Shown piece after piece: positions 2,658 to 57,990 of a stretch of DNA of 64,000 bases. The notes beneath the pieces are model-generated. The model was not told the DNA's origin. It was given only the letters and a program-made list of their open reading frames with translations, and ran no database searches. This DNA is from an uncultured Chitinophagales bacterium (GTDB lineage: Bacteria > Bacteroidota > Ignavibacteria > UBA10030 > F1-140-MAGs086), in the NCBI GenBank assembly GCA_964358705.1, contig CAYHPL010000001.1, positions 129,202 to 193,201 on the forward strand. Direction: 5' to 3'. The first letter of the stretch is position 1, and each line of letters starts with the position of its first letter. The position numbers and the translations under genes were made by a program.

Positions 2658-3245
2658 TTGCTTTTCGTGAACGAACAGAAACCATTCCGATGGCGCAAAT
2701 GGAATAATATTCTCCATCGCGATATCGGATATTTAATAGTCGGATTGACGGTGATTTATGGCATTTCAGGAATTGCCGTCAATCATATTCAGGATTGGAA
2801 TCCGAATTACAGCATTGAAAAGGAATTTGTAACCATTGCGCCATTGGTTGCAATTTCCAAAGAAGAACAAATTGAAGAAGCACAAAAAAAATTATCATTG
2901 CGTGAAGAACTCAATGATGCGTTTCGTCCGGATTCTGCAACGTTGCAACTTTTTTATGAAGAAAAAACATATTCCGTTGATATTCCGACGGGAAATGTTC
3001 TCATTGAAACAACGCGCGAACGTCGTGTATTGTACGAGATGAATCAACTGCATCTGAATACACCGAAAGGGATATGGACATTCATCGCAGACCTTTTTGC
3101 ATTTAGTTTGATAGTTGTTGCAATTACAGGAATATTTGTTCTCAAAGGAAAAAACGGCATTACAGGTCGCGGCGCTTGGATGACGGCAATTGGCATACTT
3201 GTTCCCGTTTTGTACTGGATTTACTATTTATATTTTACAGAATGA
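2658..3245 (+). CDS. PepSY-associated TM-helix protein
   Basis: N-terminal W.R..H...G......L....SGI pattern and two TM segments. Confidence 0.45.
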   Translation: MLFVNEQKPFRWRKWNNILHRDIGYLIVGLTVIYGISGIAVNHIQDWNPNYSIEKEFVTIAPLVAISKEEQIEEAQKKLSLREELNDAFRPDSATLQLFYEEKTYSVDIPTGNVLIETTRERRVLYEMNQLHLNTPKGIWTFIADLFAFSLIVVAITGIFVLKGKNGITGRGAWMTAIGILVPVLYWIYYLYFTE

Positions 3246-4243
3246 ACCAACAATTACATCTCTTACGCGATACCTACAATCGTGAGCATAAGTATTTGCG
3301 CATAGCAATTACGGAGCGATGTAATTTGCGTTGCCGCTATTGTATGCCGTCCGAAGGTATTGCACTAAAACCGCGCGCAGAACTCCTCACGTTTGATGAA
3401 ATTGAAACACTCGCAAAAATTTTTGTAGAACTTGGCATTGAAAAAATTCGCGTTACGGGAGGTGAACCGTTGGTGCGCAATGGCGTTGAGAAACTGTGTG
3501 AACGCATTGCAAAAATTTCTGATTTAAAAACTCTTGCAATTACTACCAATGGCGTATTGCTTGAAGAAAAAGCACAACAGTTAAAAGATGCCGGCGTCAA
3601 GAATATTAATATCAGTCTTGATACGCTGCAACGGGAACGATTTGAACACGTTGCATTACGTGGAGAATTTGAAAGTGTTATTCGGGGAATTGAATCTGCA
3701 TTGCAAGTAGGATTTTCATCTATAAAAATCAATGTTGTAGTAATGCGCAATTTCAATGATGATGAACTGCCGGACTTTGTAGAATTTGCCAAAGCGCTTT
3801 CGCTCAATGTTCGCTTCATAGAATATATGCCATTTCTCGGCAACGGATGGAATGAAGTGCAGTTTGTTTCGTACAAAGAAATGAAGGAGTGTATTTCAGA
3901 AAAACACGAACTCATCCCGCTTACATCTGATGAAGTGCTTCCCGGTCCCGCAAAAGATTTTCGTATCGCAGGAAGCAATGCAACCGTTGGATTTATTACC
4001 ACGATGAGCGAGCATTTTTGCGGAGATTGTAATCGCTTGCGTTTGACCGCAGATGGAAAAATGCGCAATTGTCTTTTTGCTTCCGGTGAAATTGATTTGA
4101 AACATCATCTGCGTTCAGGCGCATCGCAGGCAGAACTCTCCGCGCTTATTCACAAATGTGTAATGCAAAAATGGGAAAAACATCCCGAAGCGGAAGAACT
4201 CATTGGGCAACAGAATCGTGCAATGATTGCAATCGGAGGATAA
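3242..4243 (+). CDS. moaA: GTP 3',8-cyclase MoaA (radical SAM)
   Basis: CNLRCRYC radical-SAM motif; MoaA-like throughout. Start moved to the ATG at 3242 (MNQQLHLLRD..), because the listed start at 3176 overlaps the upstream gene. Confidence 0.9.
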   Translation: MNQQLHLLRDTYNREHKYLRIAITERCNLRCRYCMPSEGIALKPRAELLTFDEIETLAKIFVELGIEKIRVTGGEPLVRNGVEKLCERIAKISDLKTLAITTNGVLLEEKAQQLKDAGVKNINISLDTLQRERFEHVALRGEFESVIRGIESALQVGFSSIKINVVVMRNFNDDELPDFVEFAKALSLNVRFIEYMPFLGNGWNEVQFVSYKEMKECISEKHELIPLTSDEVLPGPAKDFRIAGSNATVGFITTMSEHFCGDCNRLRLTADGKMRNCLFASGEIDLKHHLRSGASQAELSALIHKCVMQKWEKHPEAEELIGQQNRAMIAIGG

Positions 4244-28060: not shown

Positions 28061-28152
28061 GCGTGAAATCTTAATAGAAAATAAATCAAAAATAAAATTT
28101 CAGCTCCGTAGGAGCGATATATTCACTTTCCATCCCAAAAAAGCAAATCTCG

Positions 28153-28322
28153 CTTCCCATTTCATAAAACTCACGCCCCAGTCTGTAAAACTTACGCCCC
28201 AATTCATAAAACTCACGCCCCAATTTGTAAAACTTACGCCCCAATTTGTAAAACTTACGCCCCAATTCATAAAACTTGCACCCGCATTTGTAAAACTCGC
28301 ATCCGCATTCATAAATCTTGCC
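28153..28322. repeat. 8 x 21-bp tandem direct repeat (consensus ccccaatt[ct][ag]taaaact[ct]acg)
   Basis: Eight contiguous, exactly phased 21-bp units in the convergent gap between the RM gene and the histidine kinase; they decay toward the 3-prime end. Confidence 0.8.
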
Positions 28323-28387
28323 ATTTCAATTGCACTTAGTCCTCCTAAATCTTCGTCCCCTCTAAGCGAACTTTACACTCATTGTAT

Positions 28388-29833
28388 CTATAAATTCCTC
28401 CTCAACACAAAACTAAACACGCTCCCTTTTCCAATTTCGCTTTGCACTTCCACCTTGCTCTCGTGCGCTTCAATAATGTGTTTCACAATTGCAAGCCCAA
28501 GCCCCGTGCCGCCAACATCGCGAGAGCGGTCTTTATCTATGCGATAAAACCGTTCAAAAATACGCGGCAAATGTTCTTCTGCAATTCCGCAACCGGTATC
28601 AGTAACAATGATACGAACTCCGTTGCTCTCAATTGCGTATGCAATAATAATTTTTCCGGTTGCAGAGGTGTATTTGATTGCATTTTCAATCAGATTCAAC
28701 ATCACTTGTTTTATGCGCTCCTTATCAGCAAACACCTCAACTGATTGCGATGGAGAAATACATTCAAGAGAAATATTTTTTTGCTCCGCTTGCAATTGCA
28801 CTTCTTCGAGAACGGAATTAAAAAATTCGCGTAATGAAAAATAGCGAAACATCATTTTCATTTCGCCGGATTCGATACGCGAAATTTCTATCAAATCGGA
28901 AAGCAAAGCATTCAACCGTTGCGAGTGATGCATTGCCTTTTGCAAAAAACTCACATTCACTTTTTTATCGTCAATAGCCCCATTCAGCAACGTTTCAAGA
29001 GCAGTCTGCAATGCGAAAATCGGTGTGCGTAATTCGTGCGAAACATTGCCGAGAAATTCACTGCGCACACGCTCAAGTTTTTTTAACTGCACAATATCGT
29101 CATTGAGTTTCTGCACCATTGCATTGATAGCCGCCGCAAGTTTTCCTATCTCATCTTTTGAAGTATGTGCAATGCGCTTTTCCAATTTTCCTGCGCGGAT
29201 TTCCTCAGCAGTGTAAGCGATTGCGTTGATGGGGCGCGCTATTTTTTTTGAAATGAAATTTGATGCGAAAATAATAAAAATGAAAATAATACCGCTTGCA
29301 AAAAATATTTTTGAGCGGATTTCCTGCAATGCAATGTGTACTTCTGTAAGATGAATACTACCGCGCAGAACTGCAACAGTCGAAAGTATTCCCGTTTGTT
29401 GCAATGGTACATTTATTTTGCGTGCAAGATACATCATTTCTACATTTAGCGTTCCGCTGCGATGCTGACTCACTCCTTTTCCCTTGCGCAATGCTTCAAA
29501 CACTTCCGGGCGCATCCGGTGATTTTCAAGTGATGGTAATTTCTTTTCATCAACTTCAGAATCAAAAACGACAACGCCATCTGCGCGAATAAATGTTACG
29601 CGAATTTCCAGCGAGTGGGAGAGTTGCTGTAATTGTTCATACGAGAGCGATGATTGCGGAGAAGCAAACGTGCGGAGTTCGTATTCAATGGAGCGGATTT
29701 TTGCATCCAACTCATTGGTGAAACGCGCGAGAAAATATTGCTCTATCTCATACGAAATAAAAAATCCTGCTGAGGACAAAATACAAATACCCAGCAGGAG
29801 AAAAATAATATTGAGACGTGTCTGCAGTTTCAT
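28388..29833 (-). CDS. sensor histidine kinase, PhoR-like
   Basis: TM, HAMP, HisKA (SHELRTP), HATPase (GTGLGL); operonic with a PhoB-like regulator. Confidence 0.8.
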   Translation of the reverse strand: MKLQTRLNIIFLLLGICILSSAGFFISYEIEQYFLARFTNELDAKIRSIEYELRTFASPQSSLSYEQLQQLSHSLEIRVTFIRADGVVVFDSEVDEKKLPSLENHRMRPEVFEALRKGKGVSQHRSGTLNVEMMYLARKINVPLQQTGILSTVAVLRGSIHLTEVHIALQEIRSKIFFASGIIFIFIIFASNFISKKIARPINAIAYTAEEIRAGKLEKRIAHTSKDEIGKLAAAINAMVQKLNDDIVQLKKLERVRSEFLGNVSHELRTPIFALQTALETLLNGAIDDKKVNVSFLQKAMHHSQRLNALLSDLIEISRIESGEMKMMFRYFSLREFFNSVLEEVQLQAEQKNISLECISPSQSVEVFADKERIKQVMLNLIENAIKYTSATGKIIIAYAIESNGVRIIVTDTGCGIAEEHLPRIFERFYRIDKDRSRDVGGTGLGLAIVKHIIEAHESKVEVQSEIGKGSVFSFVLRRNL

Positions 29834-30531
29834 TCCGGAATATTTTTGCTGCGAAAACGATAGCCAATGCCTTTTATTGTTTCGATGTATTCGGCATACG
29901 TTCCTAATTTCTCGCGGATTTTTCGTATGTGAACATCAATTGTTCTGTCATTGACGCGCACGTCATTTCCCCAAATGCTATCGAGGAGTTTTTCGCGCGT
30001 TACAACATTGCCGCTATGCTCAATGAGAAATTGCAGCAATTGAAATTCCTTCTTCGGAAAAAAAATATCGCGTTTGTTGATGAATACTTTATGCTGCTCG
30101 GGATGAATTTCAATTTCTTCAAATACAATGGCACTGCTTTTTTGGGGAGAATGTTCCTGCTGTTCATTTTTGCGTAGTACAGATTTTATGCGCGCAAGAA
30201 GTTTTGGAATGGAAATTGGTTTGACAATATAATCCACCGCGCCAAGTTCCAATCCGACTACTTCATCAATTTCAGAACTTCGTGCAGTTAAAAAAATAAC
30301 AGGAATTTGTGAAGTCTCTTTGTTCCGCTGAAGCTGCTTGAGCGCTTCAAATCCATCCATACCGGGAAGCATTACATCGAGAAGAATTACATCCGGTTTT
30401 TTCGAAGCGCACGGCAATACATCGTAGCCATTAAATGCTGTAATGACATTGTAATTTTCTTTCTGCAAATTATATTGCAACAATTCTACAATATCTTTTT
30501 CATCATCAACAATAAGAATGGTTTTGTTCAT
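29830..30531 (-). CDS. OmpR/PhoB-family response regulator
   Basis: REC (DD...D..LPGMDG) plus winged-helix (GYRF). Confidence 0.85.
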   Translation of the reverse strand: MNKTILIVDDEKDIVELLQYNLQKENYNVITAFNGYDVLPCASKKPDVILLDVMLPGMDGFEALKQLQRNKETSQIPVIFLTARSSEIDEVVGLELGAVDYIVKPISIPKLLARIKSVLRKNEQQEHSPQKSSAIVFEEIEIHPEQHKVFINKRDIFFPKKEFQLLQFLIEHSGNVVTREKLLDSIWGNDVRVNDRTIDVHIRKIREKLGTYAEYIETIKGIGYRFRSKNIPE

Positions 30532-50962: not shown

Positions 50963-53900
50963 ATGGAGAAGAAATCACCACTCAATATAAATCAAACAGC
51001 ACAAAATATCTCCGGGCTTGAAGATATTACACAACCGTTGCAAGAAATTGAGCAACGCTATCAATTGCTCTATGAACTCACGCCCATTGGAATTATTTTT
51101 TCGGATGACAACGGAATTATTCTGGACGTGAACAGCACGTTCTCTCAATCACTCCAGTACACACGGGAAGAACTGCTTGGGAATAACGTGCGGATGTTCG
51201 TTCCTCCGGAGAATCATTACAAGGTAGATGAACATATTAAGAAGATTCTTGCGGGAGAAACTTTAGAGCATGAAGTAACGAATCGCAGAAAAGACGGTTC
51301 CGTGCATATCATTGAATTGTACGAGACTGCTATCATCTTGCCCAATGGGCGGCGAGGAATTCTTACCGTCGCCAATGACATTACCGAGCGCAAAAAGGCA
51401 GAGAAAGCGTTACGGGAAAGCGAAGCAAAATATCAACAACTTTCGGATGCTACGTTTGAATCTATCTTCATTTCTGAAAAAGGTATTTGCACCGGTCAAA
51501 ATAAAACCGCTGAACGAATGTTTGGTTATACACTTGAAGAAGCGTTAGGAAGATATGGAACGGAATGGATTCATCCTGATTATCGAGAAATAGTAATGAA
51601 CAATATACTTGCCGGTTTTGAAAAACCGTATGAAGTTGTTGCATTACGAAAAGACGGAAGCACCTTCCCTTGCGAGATTCAGGGACGAATGACAAAAGAT
51701 GAAACTGGTAAATCCATCCGTATAACTGCGTTGCGGGATATAACAGAACGTAAACAAGCGGAAGAATCACTGCACCAGCACCTGCGGTTTGCTGGTGCGC
51801 TTAACGAAGTATCTGAAAGTATTATCCTGAACGATTGTCCAGATATTTTTTTGGAATCAACCACACAGATTGTCGGTGAGGCACTTATGGTTGACCGCTC
51901 GTTGATTTACGATGTATCTTTCGATAAGTATCAAGCCATTGCGCTTTGCGAGTGGATGAATCCGATGCACTCAGATATCAAGCCAACGAAGTCAACGTAT
52001 CCGTTAGGAATGTTTATCGGTGGAGCAACGGAGATGAGACGAACAAAGCAATGGTTGGAAAGTCATTCCGACAACATCAATTTATATTTTCATAATGATG
52101 GCTCCGGCGAAATTCTTCATCAGCAAATGAAAATTCAAAGTCTGTTATGGTATCCTTTTGCTTTCTACGATGGTGGATATTATCTGCTTGTATTGAATCA
52201 AGTTCATACACGAAGTGAATGGACGAAAGAAGAACTTAATTTTATTGATTCTGTTAGTAAACTCGTAAGTATTTCACTTGATAAGAACCGCCTCCTTAAA
52301 GAACGCAAGCAAGCGGAAGAATCCCTTCGGCAGTCTCACCAATTAGCGGAAACCATCTTCGATAATACGCACTTGATGATTGCCTATCTTGATTCACAGT
52401 TCAATTTCATACGCGTCAATTGTGCGTATGCTTCTGCTGACGGACATGAACCTTCCTTTTATATTGGCAAAAATCACTTTGAACTATTTCCACATCAGGA
52501 GAATAAAGAAATATTTCAACGAGTGGTGGATTCTGGGGAAACGTATTTCTCATTTGCGAAACCGTTTGAATATGCAGAAAATCCTGAACGTGGAGTGAGC
52601 TATTGGGATTGGAGTCTTAAACCAATCAAAGGCACAGATGAAAAGACAGTGGGATTGATTATGTCTCTGATAAATGTTACTGAGCGGATATTATCGGAAT
52701 TTGCATTGCGCGCGCGAGAGAATCATTCACAATCACTGCTGCGCCTTTCCAGAAAGTTTGAAGTTGCACAAACGTATGCCGAAGTTCAAAATATCGCCCT
52801 CGAAGAATTGAAATCCACTCTCGGTTATCAATCTCTGTGGATTTATCTAATGACTGAAGACAAAAAATATTTCAAAGTCCTTACTATTAATGGACCAATG
52901 TCTGACATGATATTGTCAGATGATAGAATTGCCACCCTCACCATTCAGGGTGATAGTTTTCTCGAAGAGATAGCAGAAGCAAAAGCGATAGTGGTAGTTG
53001 AAGATGCACGGACGGACAAGCGAACCAACAAAGATATTGTTGCGAGACTCGGAAACCGCACGATAATAAATGTTCCTATTTTCCTATTCGATAAACACAT
53101 CGGTAGTGTTGGTACAGGAACATTTGGAGAAGAGGGCATTTGTGTTCCTACAAAACTTGAGCAGGAATATTTGTCTGCAATGGCAAGCCATCTCGCCGTT
53201 ACACTCGACCGAATTCATTTGCTCGATGAACGTAAGCGAACGGAAATGGAAAGGGAAACGAATCGTCAGATACAGGAAGTATTGAATGGTCTTCTCCGCG
53301 CTTCAACAGAGAACATTTCATTAGATGATATACTTGAACGAGTATTGATGCTCACACTTTCTGCTCCATTTCTATCGCTACAACCAATGGGCGGTATATT
53401 TCTTACTAACGAAACAGGAGATGCGTTGCTGATGCACTGTAGTTATAAATTACCAGCATCACTACTCACAATGTGCCATACGGTGCCTTTTGGATTTTGC
53501 CTTTGTGGACGTGCTGCCGAAACCGGACAAGTTCAGTTTGCGACATGTGTTGATGAGCGGCATGAGAATCGCTACCCGGGAATACTGCCTCATGGACATT
53601 ATAATATTCCCATCATTGCTGATGACAAGATACTTGGTGTAATTGTTATTTATCTGGTGGAAGGACATCTGCAACAACAGTTGGAATTGAATTTTCTTAA
53701 ATCGGTTGCGGATATACTTTCAGGAACAATTATGAAAAAGCGTGCAGAAGAATCGTTGCGGCGCAGCGAAGAAAAATATAAAACATTTTTCGAAGACGAT
53801 TTAACTGCCGATTACATTGCAACTGCCTCTGGTCAATTATTAGAGTGCAATCCTGCGTTTGTACGAATGTTCGGCTTCAGTTCATTACAGGAAGCATTGG

Positions 53901-55270
53901 CTACGAATACAGTCGTACTGCATTTGAAACCGGAAATGCGCGATGAATTTCTTGCTCTGCTTCAGTTGAAGAAGAAACTTGAATACTTCGAAGCAAAATT
54001 TCTTCGCAGAGATGGCACATACGTGGATGTTGTTGCAAACATTACCGGAATCTTTGATGAAGAAGGAACTCTGACGAAGATGCGTGGATATTTGTTCGAT
54101 GATACAAAACGAAAACTGCTTGAGCAACAACTCATTCACGCACAAAAGATTGAAAGTCTCGGAACACTTGCGGGCGGGATTGCGCACGACTTCAATAATA
54201 TACTTGCGATTGTAAGTGGAAATGCTGCATTGATGCATTTGCAAATTACGCAACCTGAAAAGTTAGCAAAGAGTATTGATGCGATACAAAAGGCATCAGT
54301 ACGAGGAACTTCGCTCGTGAAGCAAATGCTTACGTTCGCACGTAAAACGGATACCGTGTTCATTTCCGTTGCAGTGAATGATGTTATTACAGAAGTCAAA
54401 GAATTGTTGTTTGAAACAATTCCGCGAACAATTGTCATCAAAACAAACCTGCAAGCAGAATTCAGTACTATTAATGCAGATGTATCGCAACTACATCAGG
54501 TATTTATGAATCTGTGCGTCAATGCGCGTGATGCAATGCCAAAGGGAGGAACACTGACCATTTCTACTGTTGTCGTTCAGAGTGATGCAGTGAAAAGTAA
54601 ATTTATTAACGCTCCTGCTTCAGAATATATTTTGGTTACCGTTTCTGATACAGGAATCGGAATAGATGATGTAACAATGAAAAGAATATTTGAACCGTTC
54701 TTTACTACGAAAGATATTGGCAAAGGTACGGGATTAGGGCTTGCTCTTGTCTATTCTATCATTGATAATCATAAGGGATTCATTGACGTAGTAAGTGAAA
54801 TTGGAAAAGGTACAACGTTTCTCATTTACTTGCCATTGGAAGCAGATGTTGAAATGAAGGAACGCATCTCTGATGAGAATATTTCCGTTATGCAGGGCGG
54901 TACAGAAACTATCCTTCTCATTGAAGATGAAGAAATGCTTGCTGAATTAGTAAAAGGTATTCTTGAAACAAATGGGTACAAAGTTCTCCTTGCGTTTGAT
55001 GGCGAAGAAGGTATTGAAGTGTTTGCTCAATATCGCAACAAGATTGCCTGCGTGATTACTGATTTGGGTTTGCCGAGACTTAGCGGCGATGAAGTCGTTG
55101 TGCATATCAAAGCTCTTGATGCTCATGCAAAGATTATTGTTGCAAGCGGTTTCATTGACCCGAAAAACAAGATTGAAATTATGAAAGAGGGAGTAGTGCA
55201 TTTTATTCTCAAGCCCTACTCAGCCAATGAAATTCTTTCTGTTCTTCGTACAGTTATCGAGGGAAAATAA
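50963..55270 (+). CDS. multi-sensor hybrid histidine kinase (multiple PAS and GAF domains, HisKA, HATPase, C-terminal REC)
   Basis: PAS S-box segments; HisKA (AHDFNNILA); HATPase (DTGIGI..GTGLGLA); REC (LLIEDE...ITDLGLP). Confidence 0.9.
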   Translation: MEKKSPLNINQTAQNISGLEDITQPLQEIEQRYQLLYELTPIGIIFSDDNGIILDVNSTFSQSLQYTREELLGNNVRMFVPPENHYKVDEHIKKILAGETLEHEVTNRRKDGSVHIIELYETAIILPNGRRGILTVANDITERKKAEKALRESEAKYQQLSDATFESIFISEKGICTGQNKTAERMFGYTLEEALGRYGTEWIHPDYREIVMNNILAGFEKPYEVVALRKDGSTFPCEIQGRMTKDETGKSIRITALRDITERKQAEESLHQHLRFAGALNEVSESIILNDCPDIFLESTTQIVGEALMVDRSLIYDVSFDKYQAIALCEWMNPMHSDIKPTKSTYPLGMFIGGATEMRRTKQWLESHSDNINLYFHNDGSGEILHQQMKIQSLLWYPFAFYDGGYYLLVLNQVHTRSEWTKEELNFIDSVSKLVSISLDKNRLLKERKQAEESLRQSHQLAETIFDNTHLMIAYLDSQFNFIRVNCAYASADGHEPSFYIGKNHFELFPHQENKEIFQRVVDSGETYFSFAKPFEYAENPERGVSYWDWSLKPIKGTDEKTVGLIMSLINVTERILSEFALRARENHSQSLLRLSRKFEVAQTYAEVQNIALEELKSTLGYQSLWIYLMTEDKKYFKVLTINGPMSDMILSDDRIATLTIQGDSFLEEIAEAKAIVVVEDARTDKRTNKDIVARLGNRTIINVPIFLFDKHIGSVGTGTFGEEGICVPTKLEQEYLSAMASHLAVTLDRIHLLDERKRTEMERETNRQIQEVLNGLLRASTENISLDDILERVLMLTLSAPFLSLQPMGGIFLTNETGDALLMHCSYKLPASLLTMCHTVPFGFCLCGRAAETGQVQFATCVDERHENRYPGILPHGHYNIPIIADDKILGVIVIYLVEGHLQQQLELNFLKSVADILSGTIMKKRAEESLRRSEEKYKTFFEDDLTADYIATASGQLLECNPAFVRMFGFSSLQEALATNTVVLHLKPEMRDEFLALLQLKKKLEYFEAKFLRRDGTYVDVVANITGIFDEEGTLTKMRGYLFDDTKRKLLEQQLIHAQKIESLGTLAGGIAHDFNNILAIVSGNAALMHLQITQPEKLAKSIDAIQKASVRGTSLVKQMLTFARKTDTVFISVAVNDVITEVKELLFETIPRTIVIKTNLQAEFSTINADVSQLHQVFMNLCVNARDAMPKGGTLTISTVVVQSDAVKSKFINAPASEYILVTVSDTGIGIDDVTMKRIFEPFFTTKDIGKGTGLGLALVYSIIDNHKGFIDVVSEIGKGTTFLIYLPLEADVEMKERISDENISVMQGGTETILLIEDEEMLAELVKGILETNGYKVLLAFDGEEGIEVFAQYRNKIACVITDLGLPRLSGDEVVVHIKALDAHAKIIVASGFIDPKNKIEIMKEGVVHFILKPYSANEILSVLRTVIEGK

Positions 55271-55272
55271 TT

Positions 55273-56382
55273 TTATTCTATATCATCTGCAGCATCTTCT
55301 ACTTCTTCTTGAAACTTTTCGGTGTATTTGTTGACGAATTCTTCGTAGCAGTCTTCGAAGATATCACTTCCTGTCTTGTCGCCGTATTTACACTCTGTGT
55401 ACATCCAGTATTGGTCGCCGCCATTATGCTGAATTGCGGTCGTAACACCATTTTTGAACGGATTATCTTTTACCCATGCGGTCATCTTTGCAGCAACTGC
55501 TTCGAGTTTTTTCGCATCGGCTTTGATTTTGTAAGAAAGTCTTAAATGGGTTCCTTCATTATCAATCCAATAATGCCTTGCTCCTTCATCGTACGAGAAA
55601 CTCCACGACCCTTCTTTGCTCTTTGATTGCTTCGCCGCATAATTATCTGATAAACCGAGAAGCGCCGACATTGCGCCACGCGAATAGTACGTTTGTTTCG
55701 TATCCCGAATGTGGTCTAACTCTTCCCATCCTATTTTATCAGTTCTATCAATCAAGCCGTCACAAGTAAAATTAAAGTAGTATTGAATTGCTTCTCCGAG
55801 TGCGGATGGTTCAATTGGTGTTTCTTTTAAATTGATAGTCCCGACGAGTTTGTAGTATGTAATTCCTTCTTCATTATGCTTTTGCAGGGAAAGAACTATC
55901 TCGTCCCATTTATCATATTCATCCGTCAGTTCTTCCTGTAGTTTTGCATCATCATAGGGTATCCATGTGGTATCTATCGGAGTGGAATAAAATATCAACG
56001 TAACGGTGTTGCCGCTGCATTGCACATACGCAGGGCGGGAATATATTAATGCTCCACCCGTTGCTTCTATCGGGCTGGAGACTGGATTATAACTTCCACG
56101 TGTAATGCCTTGCCAGCAGCCAACGGTAGTATTACAGGATGTTGGTTGGAATACATCAATCGTTGGAACTTGTTCACCTGTTGCAAGTGTGAGTGGAAAT
56201 CCGCTATTGATGGCTTTGTTTAATGCCACTGCCATACAGTTCGGACCAAACCAACTGCGTTTTGCTTCGAGCCAACTGTTGCCAAGCGACATTTGTACTG
56301 CATCACCATCACAGTCTTCATTTTGCGCTTTCAGTACGGGTGAAACAATAATAAGCAATAAGAGCAATGTGAAATATTTCAT
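55273..56382 (-). CDS. secreted hypothetical protein (signal peptide, Cys-containing, acidic C-terminus)
   Basis: Long ORF with a clear signal peptide (MKYFTLLLLLIIVSPVLKAQ); no recognisable domain. Confidence 0.5.
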   Translation of the reverse strand: MKYFTLLLLLIIVSPVLKAQNEDCDGDAVQMSLGNSWLEAKRSWFGPNCMAVALNKAINSGFPLTLATGEQVPTIDVFQPTSCNTTVGCWQGITRGSYNPVSSPIEATGGALIYSRPAYVQCSGNTVTLIFYSTPIDTTWIPYDDAKLQEELTDEYDKWDEIVLSLQKHNEEGITYYKLVGTINLKETPIEPSALGEAIQYYFNFTCDGLIDRTDKIGWEELDHIRDTKQTYYSRGAMSALLGLSDNYAAKQSKSKEGSWSFSYDEGARHYWIDNEGTHLRLSYKIKADAKKLEAVAAKMTAWVKDNPFKNGVTTAIQHNGGDQYWMYTECKYGDKTGSDIFEDCYEEFVNKYTEKFQEEVEDAADDIE

Positions 56383-56585
56383 ATGATTAACCTTTCATTT
56401 AGATTTTATTAAGTAAATTCAATTCAAATATATCTATTGCCGTGAGAATTAGGCATACCACAAATGGGGTATTTTTTAAAAATTGATTTAATTTGAATTT
56501 TGGAACGAGCAATTCCTATTCTGTAAATGAAAAAGAGTCATTGACTTCCAATAGAATCTGCTCAAATTATGGCAAAATAAAGAAA

Positions 56586-56750
56586 ATAAATAGCGTTGTA
56601 TGTATAAACAATACTATTGTAATGGCTTGCAATAACATTGTTTATGTTTACTATATGATTGTATGCATCTGTAATACCATTGTGTTTGTATGCAATATAA
56701 TTGTATTAACGTGCAAAGGCATTGTATTATTATACAATAGCATTGTATGC
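56586..56750. repeat. 8 x 21-bp phased tandem repeat (core AATANCATTGTAT) upstream of 55273..56382
   Basis: ATTGT cores at 56607, 56628, 56649, 56670, 56691, 56712, 56733, plus TTGT at 56587, giving exact 21-bp spacing. Confidence 0.8.
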
Positions 56751-56856
56751 GATGAAATTAGTAAAATTATATAATAATCACCTATAGTATGATTCAAATT
56801 CAACAAAAAAGCCATCTTCTTTGCAAAAGATGGCTTTTCGTTTGTTTGATGAAATA

Positions 56857-57990
56857 TTACTTCATCAACATAAGCTTCTTTGTTTCGCTATAATTGCCGC
56901 TTTGCAATTTGTAGAAATATACACCGCTCTGTACATCGGTTGCATCCCATTGCACGGAGTAACTTCCGGCACTGAGATTCTCACTCATCAATGTTGCAAC
57001 TTCGCGTCCGAGTACATCAAATATTTTTACTGTCGTGAATCCTTCACTCGCAATCTTGAATGTAATCGTTGTAATCGGATTGAAGGGATTGGGATAATTT
57101 TGGTTGAGTGCAAAACCATCGGGAACTTCGCGGGAGAGTTCGTGTACAGCCGCTGCGCCGGTACGTATTTCATACGTAAAACTATTTACCAATACGTTGC
57201 CGCCGGTAAATGCGGTATCTACATCAAAACTTGTCATTGATAAGTCCGCGCCCCACATTGAAATACTGCGTCCGACATCACGGCTTTGAAATGTTCCGTT
57301 GCTGTACGTCATATTAACATAATCTTGCTGGACACGAATTGCTGGTTGCGAAGAACCATCAGGAAGTGAAAGTGTTCCGAAACCATTCGCATTGAATGTC
57401 CGCGTAGTAACTATTACATCGCCACTGGGACTGACGGTTGAATCTGTGCTTGTAGATTGCGTGCCAAGTGTAAGCGGAAGTGGAAACAGTTTTGATTTTG
57501 GGCTGCTGATGGAAACCATGAGTGTATCCATAAAGCCGGGAATGTAATAATGAAGCGCATACCCTAATCCGAATACGCCATTATCCGCAAGTTGATAGTA
57601 AATTGCAAGTGTCATAGTTGCGGGTGGATTGTACGTTACTTGCTTTGCCGCCACATTTGCATCAGGGAAACTTGCTGCACCGGGCAATCCTGTGGGAGAA
57701 ACATAATCGGTATAAGTAGTATCGCGCAATGAATCAATATCGGCGGGAAGAGTGCCGAAGTTAAATGCTTGTGCGCTGCTGGATGGATTGCCAACATCGA
57801 ACGATGCACTATTATCGAACTGACTCCCGATTTGAGCGCGGTGTGAGTTCATAAAATATTGTTCAAATGTTGCTCGGGTAATTGTAATCTGCGCATCCGC
57901 ACTGATGACAACGCCCAGGGTAATAATAAAGAGTAATAAGGAAGAGATTTTTTTCATAGTCGTAATAATTAATTGTGGCTTGATATACAT
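56857..57990 (-). CDS. T9SS C-terminal-domain secreted protein, function unknown
   Basis: Signal peptide; C-terminal NQNYPNPFNPITTITF...KKLMLMK. Confidence 0.65.
   Translation of the reverse strand: MYIKPQLIITTMKKISSLLLFIITLGVVISADAQITITRATFEQYFMNSHRAQIGSQFDNSASFDVGNPSSSAQAFNFGTLPADIDSLRDTTYTDYVSPTGLPGAASFPDANVAAKQVTYNPPATMTLAIYYQLADNGVFGLGYALHYYIPGFMDTLMVSISSPKSKLFPLPLTLGTQSTSTDSTVSPSGDVIVTTRTFNANGFGTLSLPDGSSQPAIRVQQDYVNMTYSNGTFQSRDVGRSISMWGADLSMTSFDVDTAFTGGNVLVNSFTYEIRTGAAAVHELSREVPDGFALNQNYPNPFNPITTITFKIASEGFTTVKIFDVLGREVATLMSENLSAGSYSVQWDATDVQSGVYFYKLQSGNYSETKKLMLMK

Follow-up and report, generated by a model that had tools for sequence, protein, structure and literature searches.

Iterons and type II centromeres are tandem repeats of about two helical turns on which a DNA-binding protein polymerises into a regular filament, and they include the seven 22-bp iterons of the R6K gamma origin, the four 20-bp repeats of pSK41 parC and the ten 11-bp repeats of R1 parC. 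The sopC site of the F plasmid is composed of twelve repeats of 43 bp, and in each of them a SopB dimer binds a 7-bp inverted repeat. The lux box of Vibrio fischeri is a single 20-bp site with a CTGTA-N6-TACAG core, centred near -42.5, and the LuxR family that binds it belongs to the same helix-turn-helix (HTH) superfamily as BvgA. The sites of LytTR regulators (AgrA at P2/P3, ComE, PlnC/D) consist of two, rarely three, direct repeats. Known LytTR sites are repeat pairs located near -60 (PMC4227749). Phosphorylated BvgA binds Pptx as six head-to-head dimers with centres 22 bp apart, one monomer per turn and all on one face of the helix, and covers about 130 bp through individual sites that are weak and degenerate (PMC7250471).

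The window that we analysed, i.e., the whole stretch of 64,000 nucleotides presented here, contains at 56589..56756 an array of eight 21-bp units (starts at 56589, 56610, 56631, 56652, 56673, 56694, 56715 and 56736) whose consensus is AATAnCATTGTAT-n5-TRC. Units 1 to 4 read, in order, AATAGCGTTGTATGTATAAAC, AATACTATTGTAATGGCTTGC, AATAACATTGTTTATGTTTAC and TATATGATTGTATGCATCTGT, and units 5 to 8 read AATACCATTGTGTTTGTATGC, AATATAATTGTATTAACGTGC, AAAGGCATTGTATTATTATAC and AATAGCATTGTATGCGATGAA. The array, to which no strand is assigned, carries eight ATTGTA-type half-sites on the plus strand and, with the same 21-bp phasing, five to seven of the TRCAAT type. ATTGT is found at 56616, 56637, 56658, 56679, 56700, 56721 and 56742, in exact 21-bp steps, and unit 1 has the variant core GTTGT at 56595. 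An earlier reading of this DNA, made from the sequence only, had described an eight-fold 21-bp phased core, and the seven ATTGT and one GTTGT exactly in phase confirm it. The extent that it gave (56586..56750) was close, with both ends slightly shifted by the register established here, and the distances to the flanking genes that it stated are correct: the array comes within 207 bp of the ATG (56382), and 101 bp lie between its other end and the stop of the gene at 56857..57990. The plus strand of the 64-kb window has 178 copies of ATTGT, a mean of one in about 360 bp, and since no 170-bp stretch of the window other than the array holds four or more copies, a chance origin of the phasing is excluded. 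The self-identity of the array reaches 0.58, 0.63 and 0.58 at lags of 21, 42 and 63 bp, against a background of 0.18-0.34 at lags of 7, 10, 11, 14, 20 and 22 bp. Tandem Repeats Finder reported only 4.3 copies with 67% matches (56658..56748) and under-calls the array because the units are old and diverged, their mean pairwise identity being 0.61.

Conservation is distributed unevenly along the unit. Columns 2 and 8-11 are invariant (8/8 units), columns 1, 3, 4, 7 and 13 have the same base in seven of the eight units and columns 19-21 read T-R-C in six to eight, while columns 5, 14, 15, 16 and 18 are essentially random; two conserved blocks (columns 19-21 continuing into 1-4, and columns 7-13) are separated by spacers at columns 5-6 and 14-18. 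When the unit mismatches were scattered over random columns, the observed variance was reached in 0.1% of the trials (P ~0.001 against uniform decay). Conserved blocks with free spacers are the pattern given by selection on a recognition sequence, and it is likely that selection acts on the core of the array. These data bear on the possibility that the array is a functionless minisatellite, born as a 21-bp slippage duplication in a tolerant intergenic spot and now decaying, with the core as a remnant. Neutral decay should strike all columns alike, yet invariant columns stand here beside five random ones, and the units have diverged to 61% identity without a single phase-breaking indel over 168 bp. 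Altogether, we consider that the array is real and probably functional.

The distribution of conserved columns also ignores codon positions, third positions 3 and 9 being invariant and second positions 5 and 14 free, which argues against a real small gene. The open frame concerned (56493..56774, plus strand) starts with TTG and would encode a 93-aa Cys-rich peptide with eight copies of the heptad N-x-I-V-x-x-C. It does stay open through eight diverged units and shows some synonymous variation in Val (GTA/GTT/GTG) and Cys (TGC/TGT) codons, but an open frame through such a core is expected by chance in 10-20% of cases by our estimate. We found no homologue (0 among 1.84 billion representative proteins) and a sub-threshold Pfam match only, and the gene finders left the frame uncalled in three assemblies (L001-L003). 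On these grounds the coding interpretation, which the sequence-only reading had already judged spurious, is rejected as scarcely credible.

The two conserved blocks are mutually reverse-complementary and create a dyad, TRCAAT-ANC-ATTGTA, that spans the unit junctions. The best copy, at 56732..56748, is ATACAAT-AGC-ATTGTAT (ATACAATAGCATTGTAT); it joins units 7 and 8 and is a perfect dyad whose 7-bp arms flank a 3-bp centre. A second clean copy, ACAAT-ACT-ATTGT, has 5-bp arms at 56608..56620, within 56606..56622, across the junction of units 1 and 2. The inverted repeat across unit junctions had been overlooked in the earlier reading. In the dyad register, 83.7% of the cells pair when G-U is allowed (plus strand) and 69.4% pair by strict Watson-Crick rules as read on the minus strand, whereas registers slid by one to three columns give just 16-54%. 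Because the unit is periodic, a second dyad, ATTGTA-N6-TRCAAT, is also present. The two dyads per period place symmetry axes every 10.5 bp with alternating half-site orientation and, since like sites recur every 21 bp (two turns), all sites lie on one face of the helix. Half-sites with at most one mismatch number 19 per 168 bp in the array versus a window mean of 3.4 (sd 2.0). The dyad is well supported and not beyond doubt, because its arms are unequally conserved (ATTGT is reported in 8/8 units, whereas in the left arm column 20 is G or A and column 21 is C in 6/8) and because, as we estimate, chance would produce a 6-bp dyad in an AT-rich periodic unit in a few percent of cases. Outside the array, no further copy of the dyad was found in the 64-kb window, and therefore no regulon is visible; the flanking motif TTGAATTTGAAT was not enriched.

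Several features of known systems are found in this architecture. As in BvgA tracts, inverted half-sites occur once per turn, with dimer centres 21 bp apart and on one face, here over seven to eight positions and 168 bp. The BvgA tracts of Pfha and Pptx run up to the -35 element, while 207 bp separate the array from the ATG; BvgA recognises heptads resembling TTTCCTA as half-sites and those of the array are TTGTA; and BvgA tracts, unlike the array, are not recognisable tandem repeats. BvgA itself belongs to the NarL/FixJ family with a GerE-type HTH, and a GerE-type gene is absent from the window. In its second register, TTGTA-N6-TRCAA, the array appears to share the 5-6-5 geometry of the lux box and nearly its half-site, but lux boxes are single sites and not arrays. 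Like sopC, every unit of the array carries a small palindrome suited to an HTH dimer, whereas sopC has a period of 43 bp rather than 21 bp, near-identical units, a partition role and the adjacent sopAB genes. Like iterons and parC, the array consists of contiguous tandem repeats of about two helical turns; those sites, however, lie by rep or par genes on plasmids, and the array is chromosomal without such genes.

Intrinsic curvature was considered as a cause of the 21-bp period and ruled out for this array, which is predicted to be straight by a dinucleotide wedge model (end-to-end/contour 0.989, above 99% of the window segments). The window has another array of eight 21-bp units at 28156..28323, with 76% alike units and the consensus CCCAATTCATAAAACTTACGC, and the sequence-only reading had taken the two as kin (28153..28322 in its coordinates) through the common architecture and a weak shared TTGTA core. 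This kinship does not hold: TTGTA is present in only 3/8 units of the sister array, the unit is unrelated, and the site lies between convergent genes, where an Eco57I-type restriction-modification gene and a PhoR-like kinase gene have their 3' ends. The predicted curvature is opposite as well, since with an end-to-end/contour ratio of 0.69 the sister array is the most curved 168-bp segment predicted in the window by the wedge model. According to this model, curvature would explain the 21-bp period of the sister array and not that of the array at 56589..56756. The two arrays differ in all but unit count and period and should not be pooled; the window's two 8 x 21-bp arrays are different things.

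The array is intergenic, outside the called genes, in a region of 27% G+C between the terminator of a T9SS gene and the start of the next gene. The T9SS-sorted protein (366 aa, Por_Secre_tail) is encoded on the minus strand at 56857..57957 (56857..57990 as the gene in the sequence-only reading), and the array lies past its terminator. This strong intrinsic terminator (56806..56839, assigned to the minus strand) is a G+C-containing hairpin with T-runs on both strands: a 15-pair stem followed by TTTTTTGTTG on the minus strand and a 12-pair stem followed by CGTTTGTTTG on the plus strand. It could also end a plus-strand transcript crossing the array, from which it is separated by about 50 bp. A rival reading is a plus-strand non-coding RNA of about 270 nt (roughly 56577..56845), which would end at the bidirectional terminator and display either seven short hairpins, each with a URCAAU/AUUGUA stem and an ANC loop, or eight CAUUGUAU motifs; it might sequester, like a sponge, an RNA-binding protein or another RNA. 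A sigma-70-like match, TTGACT-18-AATTAT, sits just before the array at 56541..56570 on the plus strand, and the hairpin with its T-run follows about 50 nt downstream; moreover, the departures in the left arm are mostly G-U pairs (83.7% pairing on the plus strand versus 69.4% on the minus strand) and the plus-strand fold has a z of -2.9. The minus-strand fold is equally non-random, however (z = -2.8), as is expected of a DNA palindrome, and none of the seven pairs shows compensatory changes (0/7), shuffled partners pairing equally well, in a comparison of seven internal copies that has low power. The hairpins, with five to six A-U-rich pairs and 3-nt loops, would be marginally stable. The promoter match is a weak one, a consensus match only (9/12), and shuffled sequences give about as many such sites (7 found in the region vs 4.9 expected), while the better T-run of the terminator serves the minus-strand gene. 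In Rfam 15, nothing in the window reached the gathering thresholds, and permissive filters returned sub-threshold matches to the terminator hairpin only. A non-coding RNA thus described appears quite unlikely to us.

Coming back to protein-binding sites on DNA, phased cores with a 21-bp period had been tentatively attributed by the sequence-only reading to LytTR-type or some OmpR-type regulators, a version in which a response regulator would bind head-to-tail on direct repeats spaced by 21 bp. The period does fit a 9-bp repeat with a 12-bp spacer, as in the sites of AgrA, ComE and PlnC, and columns 1-13 can be read as one 13-bp direct repeat. Nevertheless, the LytTR consensus [TA][AC][CA]GTTN[AG][TG] matches neither strand anywhere in 56560..56790, the conserved blocks show dyad symmetry rather than a plain direct repeat, and no LytTR gene was seen among the Pfam-scanned proteins of the 64-kb window. 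The 10-11-bp period of OmpR/PhoB sites is not seen either, since the self-identity at lags 10 and 11 (0.34 and 0.31) stays at background, below the 0.58 of lag 21. Known LytTR sites are paired about 60 bp from the start site (PMC4227749) and do not come in sets of eight; the units here lie 207-374 bp from the ATG, which would be some 170-340 bp from the start site. The likeness to a LytTR element is limited to the period of exactly 21 bp; the array differs in its eight units, its dyad-symmetric core, its lack of a consensus match and the absence of a LytTR gene nearby.

A link to LytTR proteins was found at another locus. Among the matches listed, the most similar array is that of Bergeyella cardium (AATnnnATTGTAACGC, 9 units), which lies 113 bp after a gene pair for a LytS-type kinase and a LytTR regulator. 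The orthologous two-component loci of Chryseobacterium taklimakanense, Kaistella carnis and a metagenomic relative have neither an array nor clusters of ATTGTAA, so the adjacency in Bergeyella is not conserved, and a phmmer search with the Bergeyella LytTR domain, a single-sequence search of limited sensitivity, found no such domain beside any other fetched array. For the LytTR/OmpR reading the period fits and nothing else does; we regard it as distinctly doubtful.

The Bergeyella array came from scans of genome contigs, searched for ATTGT four times at 21 bp, and of metagenome contigs, searched for a degenerate core four times. Together they gave at least about 200 arrays of 21-bp period among the matches listed, nearly all young, near-perfect and unrelated, and these matches include intergenic arrays whose units contain ATTGT, spread over various phyla. 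Partial likeness, in the form of constant and variable segments, was seen among the matches listed in Bergeyella cardium, in Taibaiella lutea (at least 13 units), in a Chloracidobacterium MAG (9 units) and in several Bacillaceae. Twelve look-alike arrays share no neighbour gene family, and several of them lie between convergent genes (including L119, L093 and L066). A scan of viral sequences yielded short, perfect arrays, the neighbours of which were uninformative. Scattered arrays without a shared neighbour gene imply that such repeats can arise without an obvious regulatory partner, which speaks for the functionless minisatellite described above: unrelated 21-bp intergenic arrays are common in many phyla, several of them, including the sister array, lie between convergent genes, where no promoter is expected, and we found no relative of the array in databases among the matches listed, no partner protein and no second site. 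Weighing these observations against the core-specific conservation and the intact phase, we hold a functionless origin to be unlikely.

Three contigs of the same strain (L001-L003, from Hainich groundwater assemblies) are 100% identical over the intergenic region and ~100% elsewhere, and for that reason they are silent on constraint and copy-number variation. The closest named homologue of the neighbouring gene comes from an Ignavibacteriales MAG. Homologues of the upstream 366-aa gene (up to 55% identity) have other neighbourhoods, without the array, and no orthologous array region or synteny was found among the relatives of both flanking genes, all of which are distant. The literature search on 21-bp arrays in Nostoc or Ignavibacteria found nothing.

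The surroundings of the array are those of an ordinary chromosome, with pst/phoU/phoBR, ribosomal proteins, an H+-pyrophosphatase, several T9SS-sorted proteins, a 1435-aa hybrid sensor kinase and a MoxR/Bat operon. This setting bears on whether the array is iteron- or centromere-like (R6K iterons, pSK41 and R1 parC, F sopC), maybe the relic of an integrated element. Contiguous repeats of 20-22 bp in sets of 4-12, some with inverted repeats, define such sites, the 21-bp units fall within a range of 17-22 bp for repeats of this kind, and the flanks are AT-rich (27% G+C). There is, however, no rep, par or integrase gene nearby, the neighbours being housekeeping, T9SS and Bat-operon genes; no similarity to plasmid or phage records was found, and one weak match alone resembles a DnaA box. 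We consider this origin very improbable. Among the window proteins scanned with Pfam, the only DNA-binding regulator besides sensor kinases is a PhoB-like protein of OmpR type (29830..30531), and the scan revealed no candidate array-binding protein encoded in the 64 kb. The adjoining 10 kb (Bat operon) has no further 21-bp array.

If the array is regulatory, its presumed target is the downstream gene at 55273..56382 on the minus strand, which encodes a protein of 369 aa that begins with a signal-like segment and falls in no Pfam family. Its AlphaFold model (pLDDT 74.6) gives weak fold matches only, to ARPC2 and to YbjN/type III chaperone-like alpha/beta domains. The sequence-only reading had placed the array in the promoter region of this gene; upstream and intergenic it is, and "promoter" is generous for a site 207 bp from the ATG when another palindrome is proximal. 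No sigma-54 promoter was seen by eye, and the Bacteroidetes-type -7 motif TAnnTTTG is not enriched upstream of the organism's genes, so it was not used for placing the start site. The proximal palindrome, ATACCAC-AAAT-GGGGTAT (56455..56472, no strand assigned), lies outside the array, its centre being some 81 bp from the ATG. In other bacteria, the genes for homologues of the 369-aa protein (43-51% identity) immediately follow those for a histidine kinase of Y_Y_Y type and a response regulator of GerE type. None of their loci has a 21-bp array, and all have the element ATACCCC-N4-GGGGTAT in short spacers before the homologue or the gene preceding it, with an additional copy between the kinase and regulator genes in 2/3 loci. 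The copy at 56455..56472 corresponds to this element with one mismatch. The proximal palindrome is a likelier candidate operator of the 369-aa gene than the array, which is an extra, lineage-specific feature farther upstream.

The array is of a known general kind, phased tandem operator arrays; its size and position are unusual, and its partner was not found in the 64-kb window. Our best explanation, which we advance tentatively as a fair possibility, is that it serves as a DNA docking track for a dimeric sequence-specific regulator, with a geometry nearest to that of the BvgA arrays. This reading is supported by the exact phasing, the core-specific conservation, the density of half-sites, the intergenic site, the predicted straight axis and the experimental precedent of BvgA, and its rivals lack support (an ORF without homologue, no Rfam family, no covariation). 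Phasing, position-specific conservation and dyad-symmetric half-sites with axes 10.5 bp apart on one face are direct features of the array, and on such a scaffold seven to eight dimers might be accommodated side by side, each on either TRCAAT-N3-ATTGTA or ATTGTA-N6-TRCAAT. Contacts between neighbouring dimers would then give a cooperative protein-DNA filament of about 170 bp. It is tempting to go further and hypothesize that this filament may modulate the gene of the 369-aa secreted protein from afar, whether it activates or silences the gene as an upstream tract or serves as a reservoir of the regulator, and that it may work jointly with the separate proximal ATACCAC-N4-GGGGTAT operator.

The protein binding this track would most likely be an HTH regulator. 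Because homologues of the target gene are paired with GerE-type regulators elsewhere, the GerE family is a reasonable first candidate, and no more; at those loci the GerE-type regulator goes with a palindrome different from the array. The distance from the gene, the lack of further sites in the window and the lack of a partner gene all speak against a simple activator; for a bacterial activator of the sigma-70 kind, 207-374 bp from the ATG is far. A more specific proposal, namely a dedicated chromosomal polymerisation track with a filament of about 170 bp on some 15 alternating half-sites acting 170-340 bp upstream or as a titrating reservoir, or alternatively a seven-hairpin sponge RNA, has in our opinion a small chance of being right. 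If the reservoir were true, it would impose a sharp concentration threshold on the regulator.

At this stage the practical value of the array is that of a lead and not of a result, as it is one orphan element in one clonal population. In addition, 21-bp intergenic arrays are widespread and heterogeneous, which is a warning against inferring a regulator family from the period alone. If the docking track exists, the array would offer a defined 168-bp probe for fishing out its binding protein and, should the regulator polymerise, a clean natural case, beyond BvgA of Bordetella, of several dimers binding cooperatively on one face of the helix, in an uncultured groundwater lineage of Ignavibacteriales. 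Experimental data on gene regulation in Ignavibacteriota are very scarce. Either the filament or the sponge RNA, if true, would represent an undescribed regulatory device in Ignavibacteriota.

The spacers that lie 5' of the homologues of the 369-aa secreted-protein gene share a palindrome of 18 bp (ATACCCC-N4-GGGGTAT), in most cases with TGAT after it; the palindrome stands either before the homologue itself or before the gene that precedes it, and this among bacteria whose proteins are only 43-51% identical. Copies were found at about 3125-3145 and 3852-3872 in homologue locus L004, at about 7135-7155 in L008 and at about 855-875 and 1600-1620 in L009, while the copy of the window (56455..56472) carries one mismatch. 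In two of these three homologue loci the palindrome also occurs between adjacent genes for a Y_Y_Y histidine kinase and a GerE response regulator; this two-component pair is not found near the window copy. The palindrome is probably the operator of the GerE response regulator; alternatively, it may be an RNA hairpin.

The AlphaFold model of the 369-aa protein (pLDDT 74.6; alignment of six sequences) consists of two alpha/beta modules. Its best fold matches are weak, with a TM of about 0.23 over the full length and of about 0.5 for single domains; they are to the Arp2/3 subunit ARPC2 and to YbjN/type III secretion chaperone-like domains. The gene (55273..56382, minus strand) lies tail to tail with that of a 1435-aa hybrid PAS/GAF histidine kinase (50963..55270, plus strand), their stop codons being just two bases apart, and no terminator was found between the two genes (55270..55273).

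The second array of the window (28156..28323) comprises eight 21-bp units, 76% alike, with the consensus CCCAATTCATAAAACTTACGC; it is flanked by convergent genes for an Eco57I-type R-M protein and a PhoR-like kinase and represents, as predicted by the wedge model, the most curved 168 bp of the window (0.69). An ATG-started open frame of 74 aa (28100..28324, minus strand) runs across this array, reads as WGVSF(T/M)N heptads and lies 64 nt past the stop of the PhoR-like kinase gene. Flanking convergent genes, one of them coding for a T9SS-sorted protein, are likewise found around the Taibaiella lutea array (L093, 4224..4497), in which the 21-bp unit AGTGTAATTGTRTA-n5-TTA is present 13 times or more; 16 bp of every unit are constant and 5 bp are variable. 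The Bergeyella cardium array (L119, 6879..7068, at about 30.9 kb of NZ_CP114055.2) contains nine 21-bp units, AAYnnnATTGTAACGCrAArA, in which columns 4-6 form a hypervariable triplet, and is placed between two terminators, that of a LytS-kinase/LytTR-regulator operon and that of a convergent ClpX-like gene; such an array is absent at the orthologous loci of Chryseobacterium and Kaistella.

Among the matches listed, intergenic tandem arrays with 5-14 units of 21 bp form a large family in Nostocales genomes and in metagenomes (L013, L053, L059, L061, L081, L087, L104 and many JGI contigs, e.g., L182 and L209), with the unit AAT[GC][GC]CATTGTCAGTCGAT[AG]C and conserved flanks. Like the main array upstream of the 369-aa gene, these arrays carry an RCAAT-N3-ATTGT dyad, a likeness that may be due to chance because our search forced ATTGT. 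The family had no match in Rfam, and a literature search returned no publications on it. In three related IMG/VR contigs the 21-bp unit TTACAATTAAATTGTTTTAAG, which includes a 5-3-5 dyad, is repeated perfectly 4-5 times (L285, 3018..3098; L286, 4311..4391; L289, 6369..6470), and the genes flanking these viral arrays belong to no PHROG or Pfam family.

As regards promoter type, the Bacteroidetes-type -7 motif TAnnTTTG is not enriched 5' of the window genes when all gene starts are considered: the 150-bp stretches preceding 45 genes contain four sense matches in total, compared with a background density of about 0.6 per kb on each strand. This Ignavibacteriales genome probably does not have promoters of the Bacteroidetes type.
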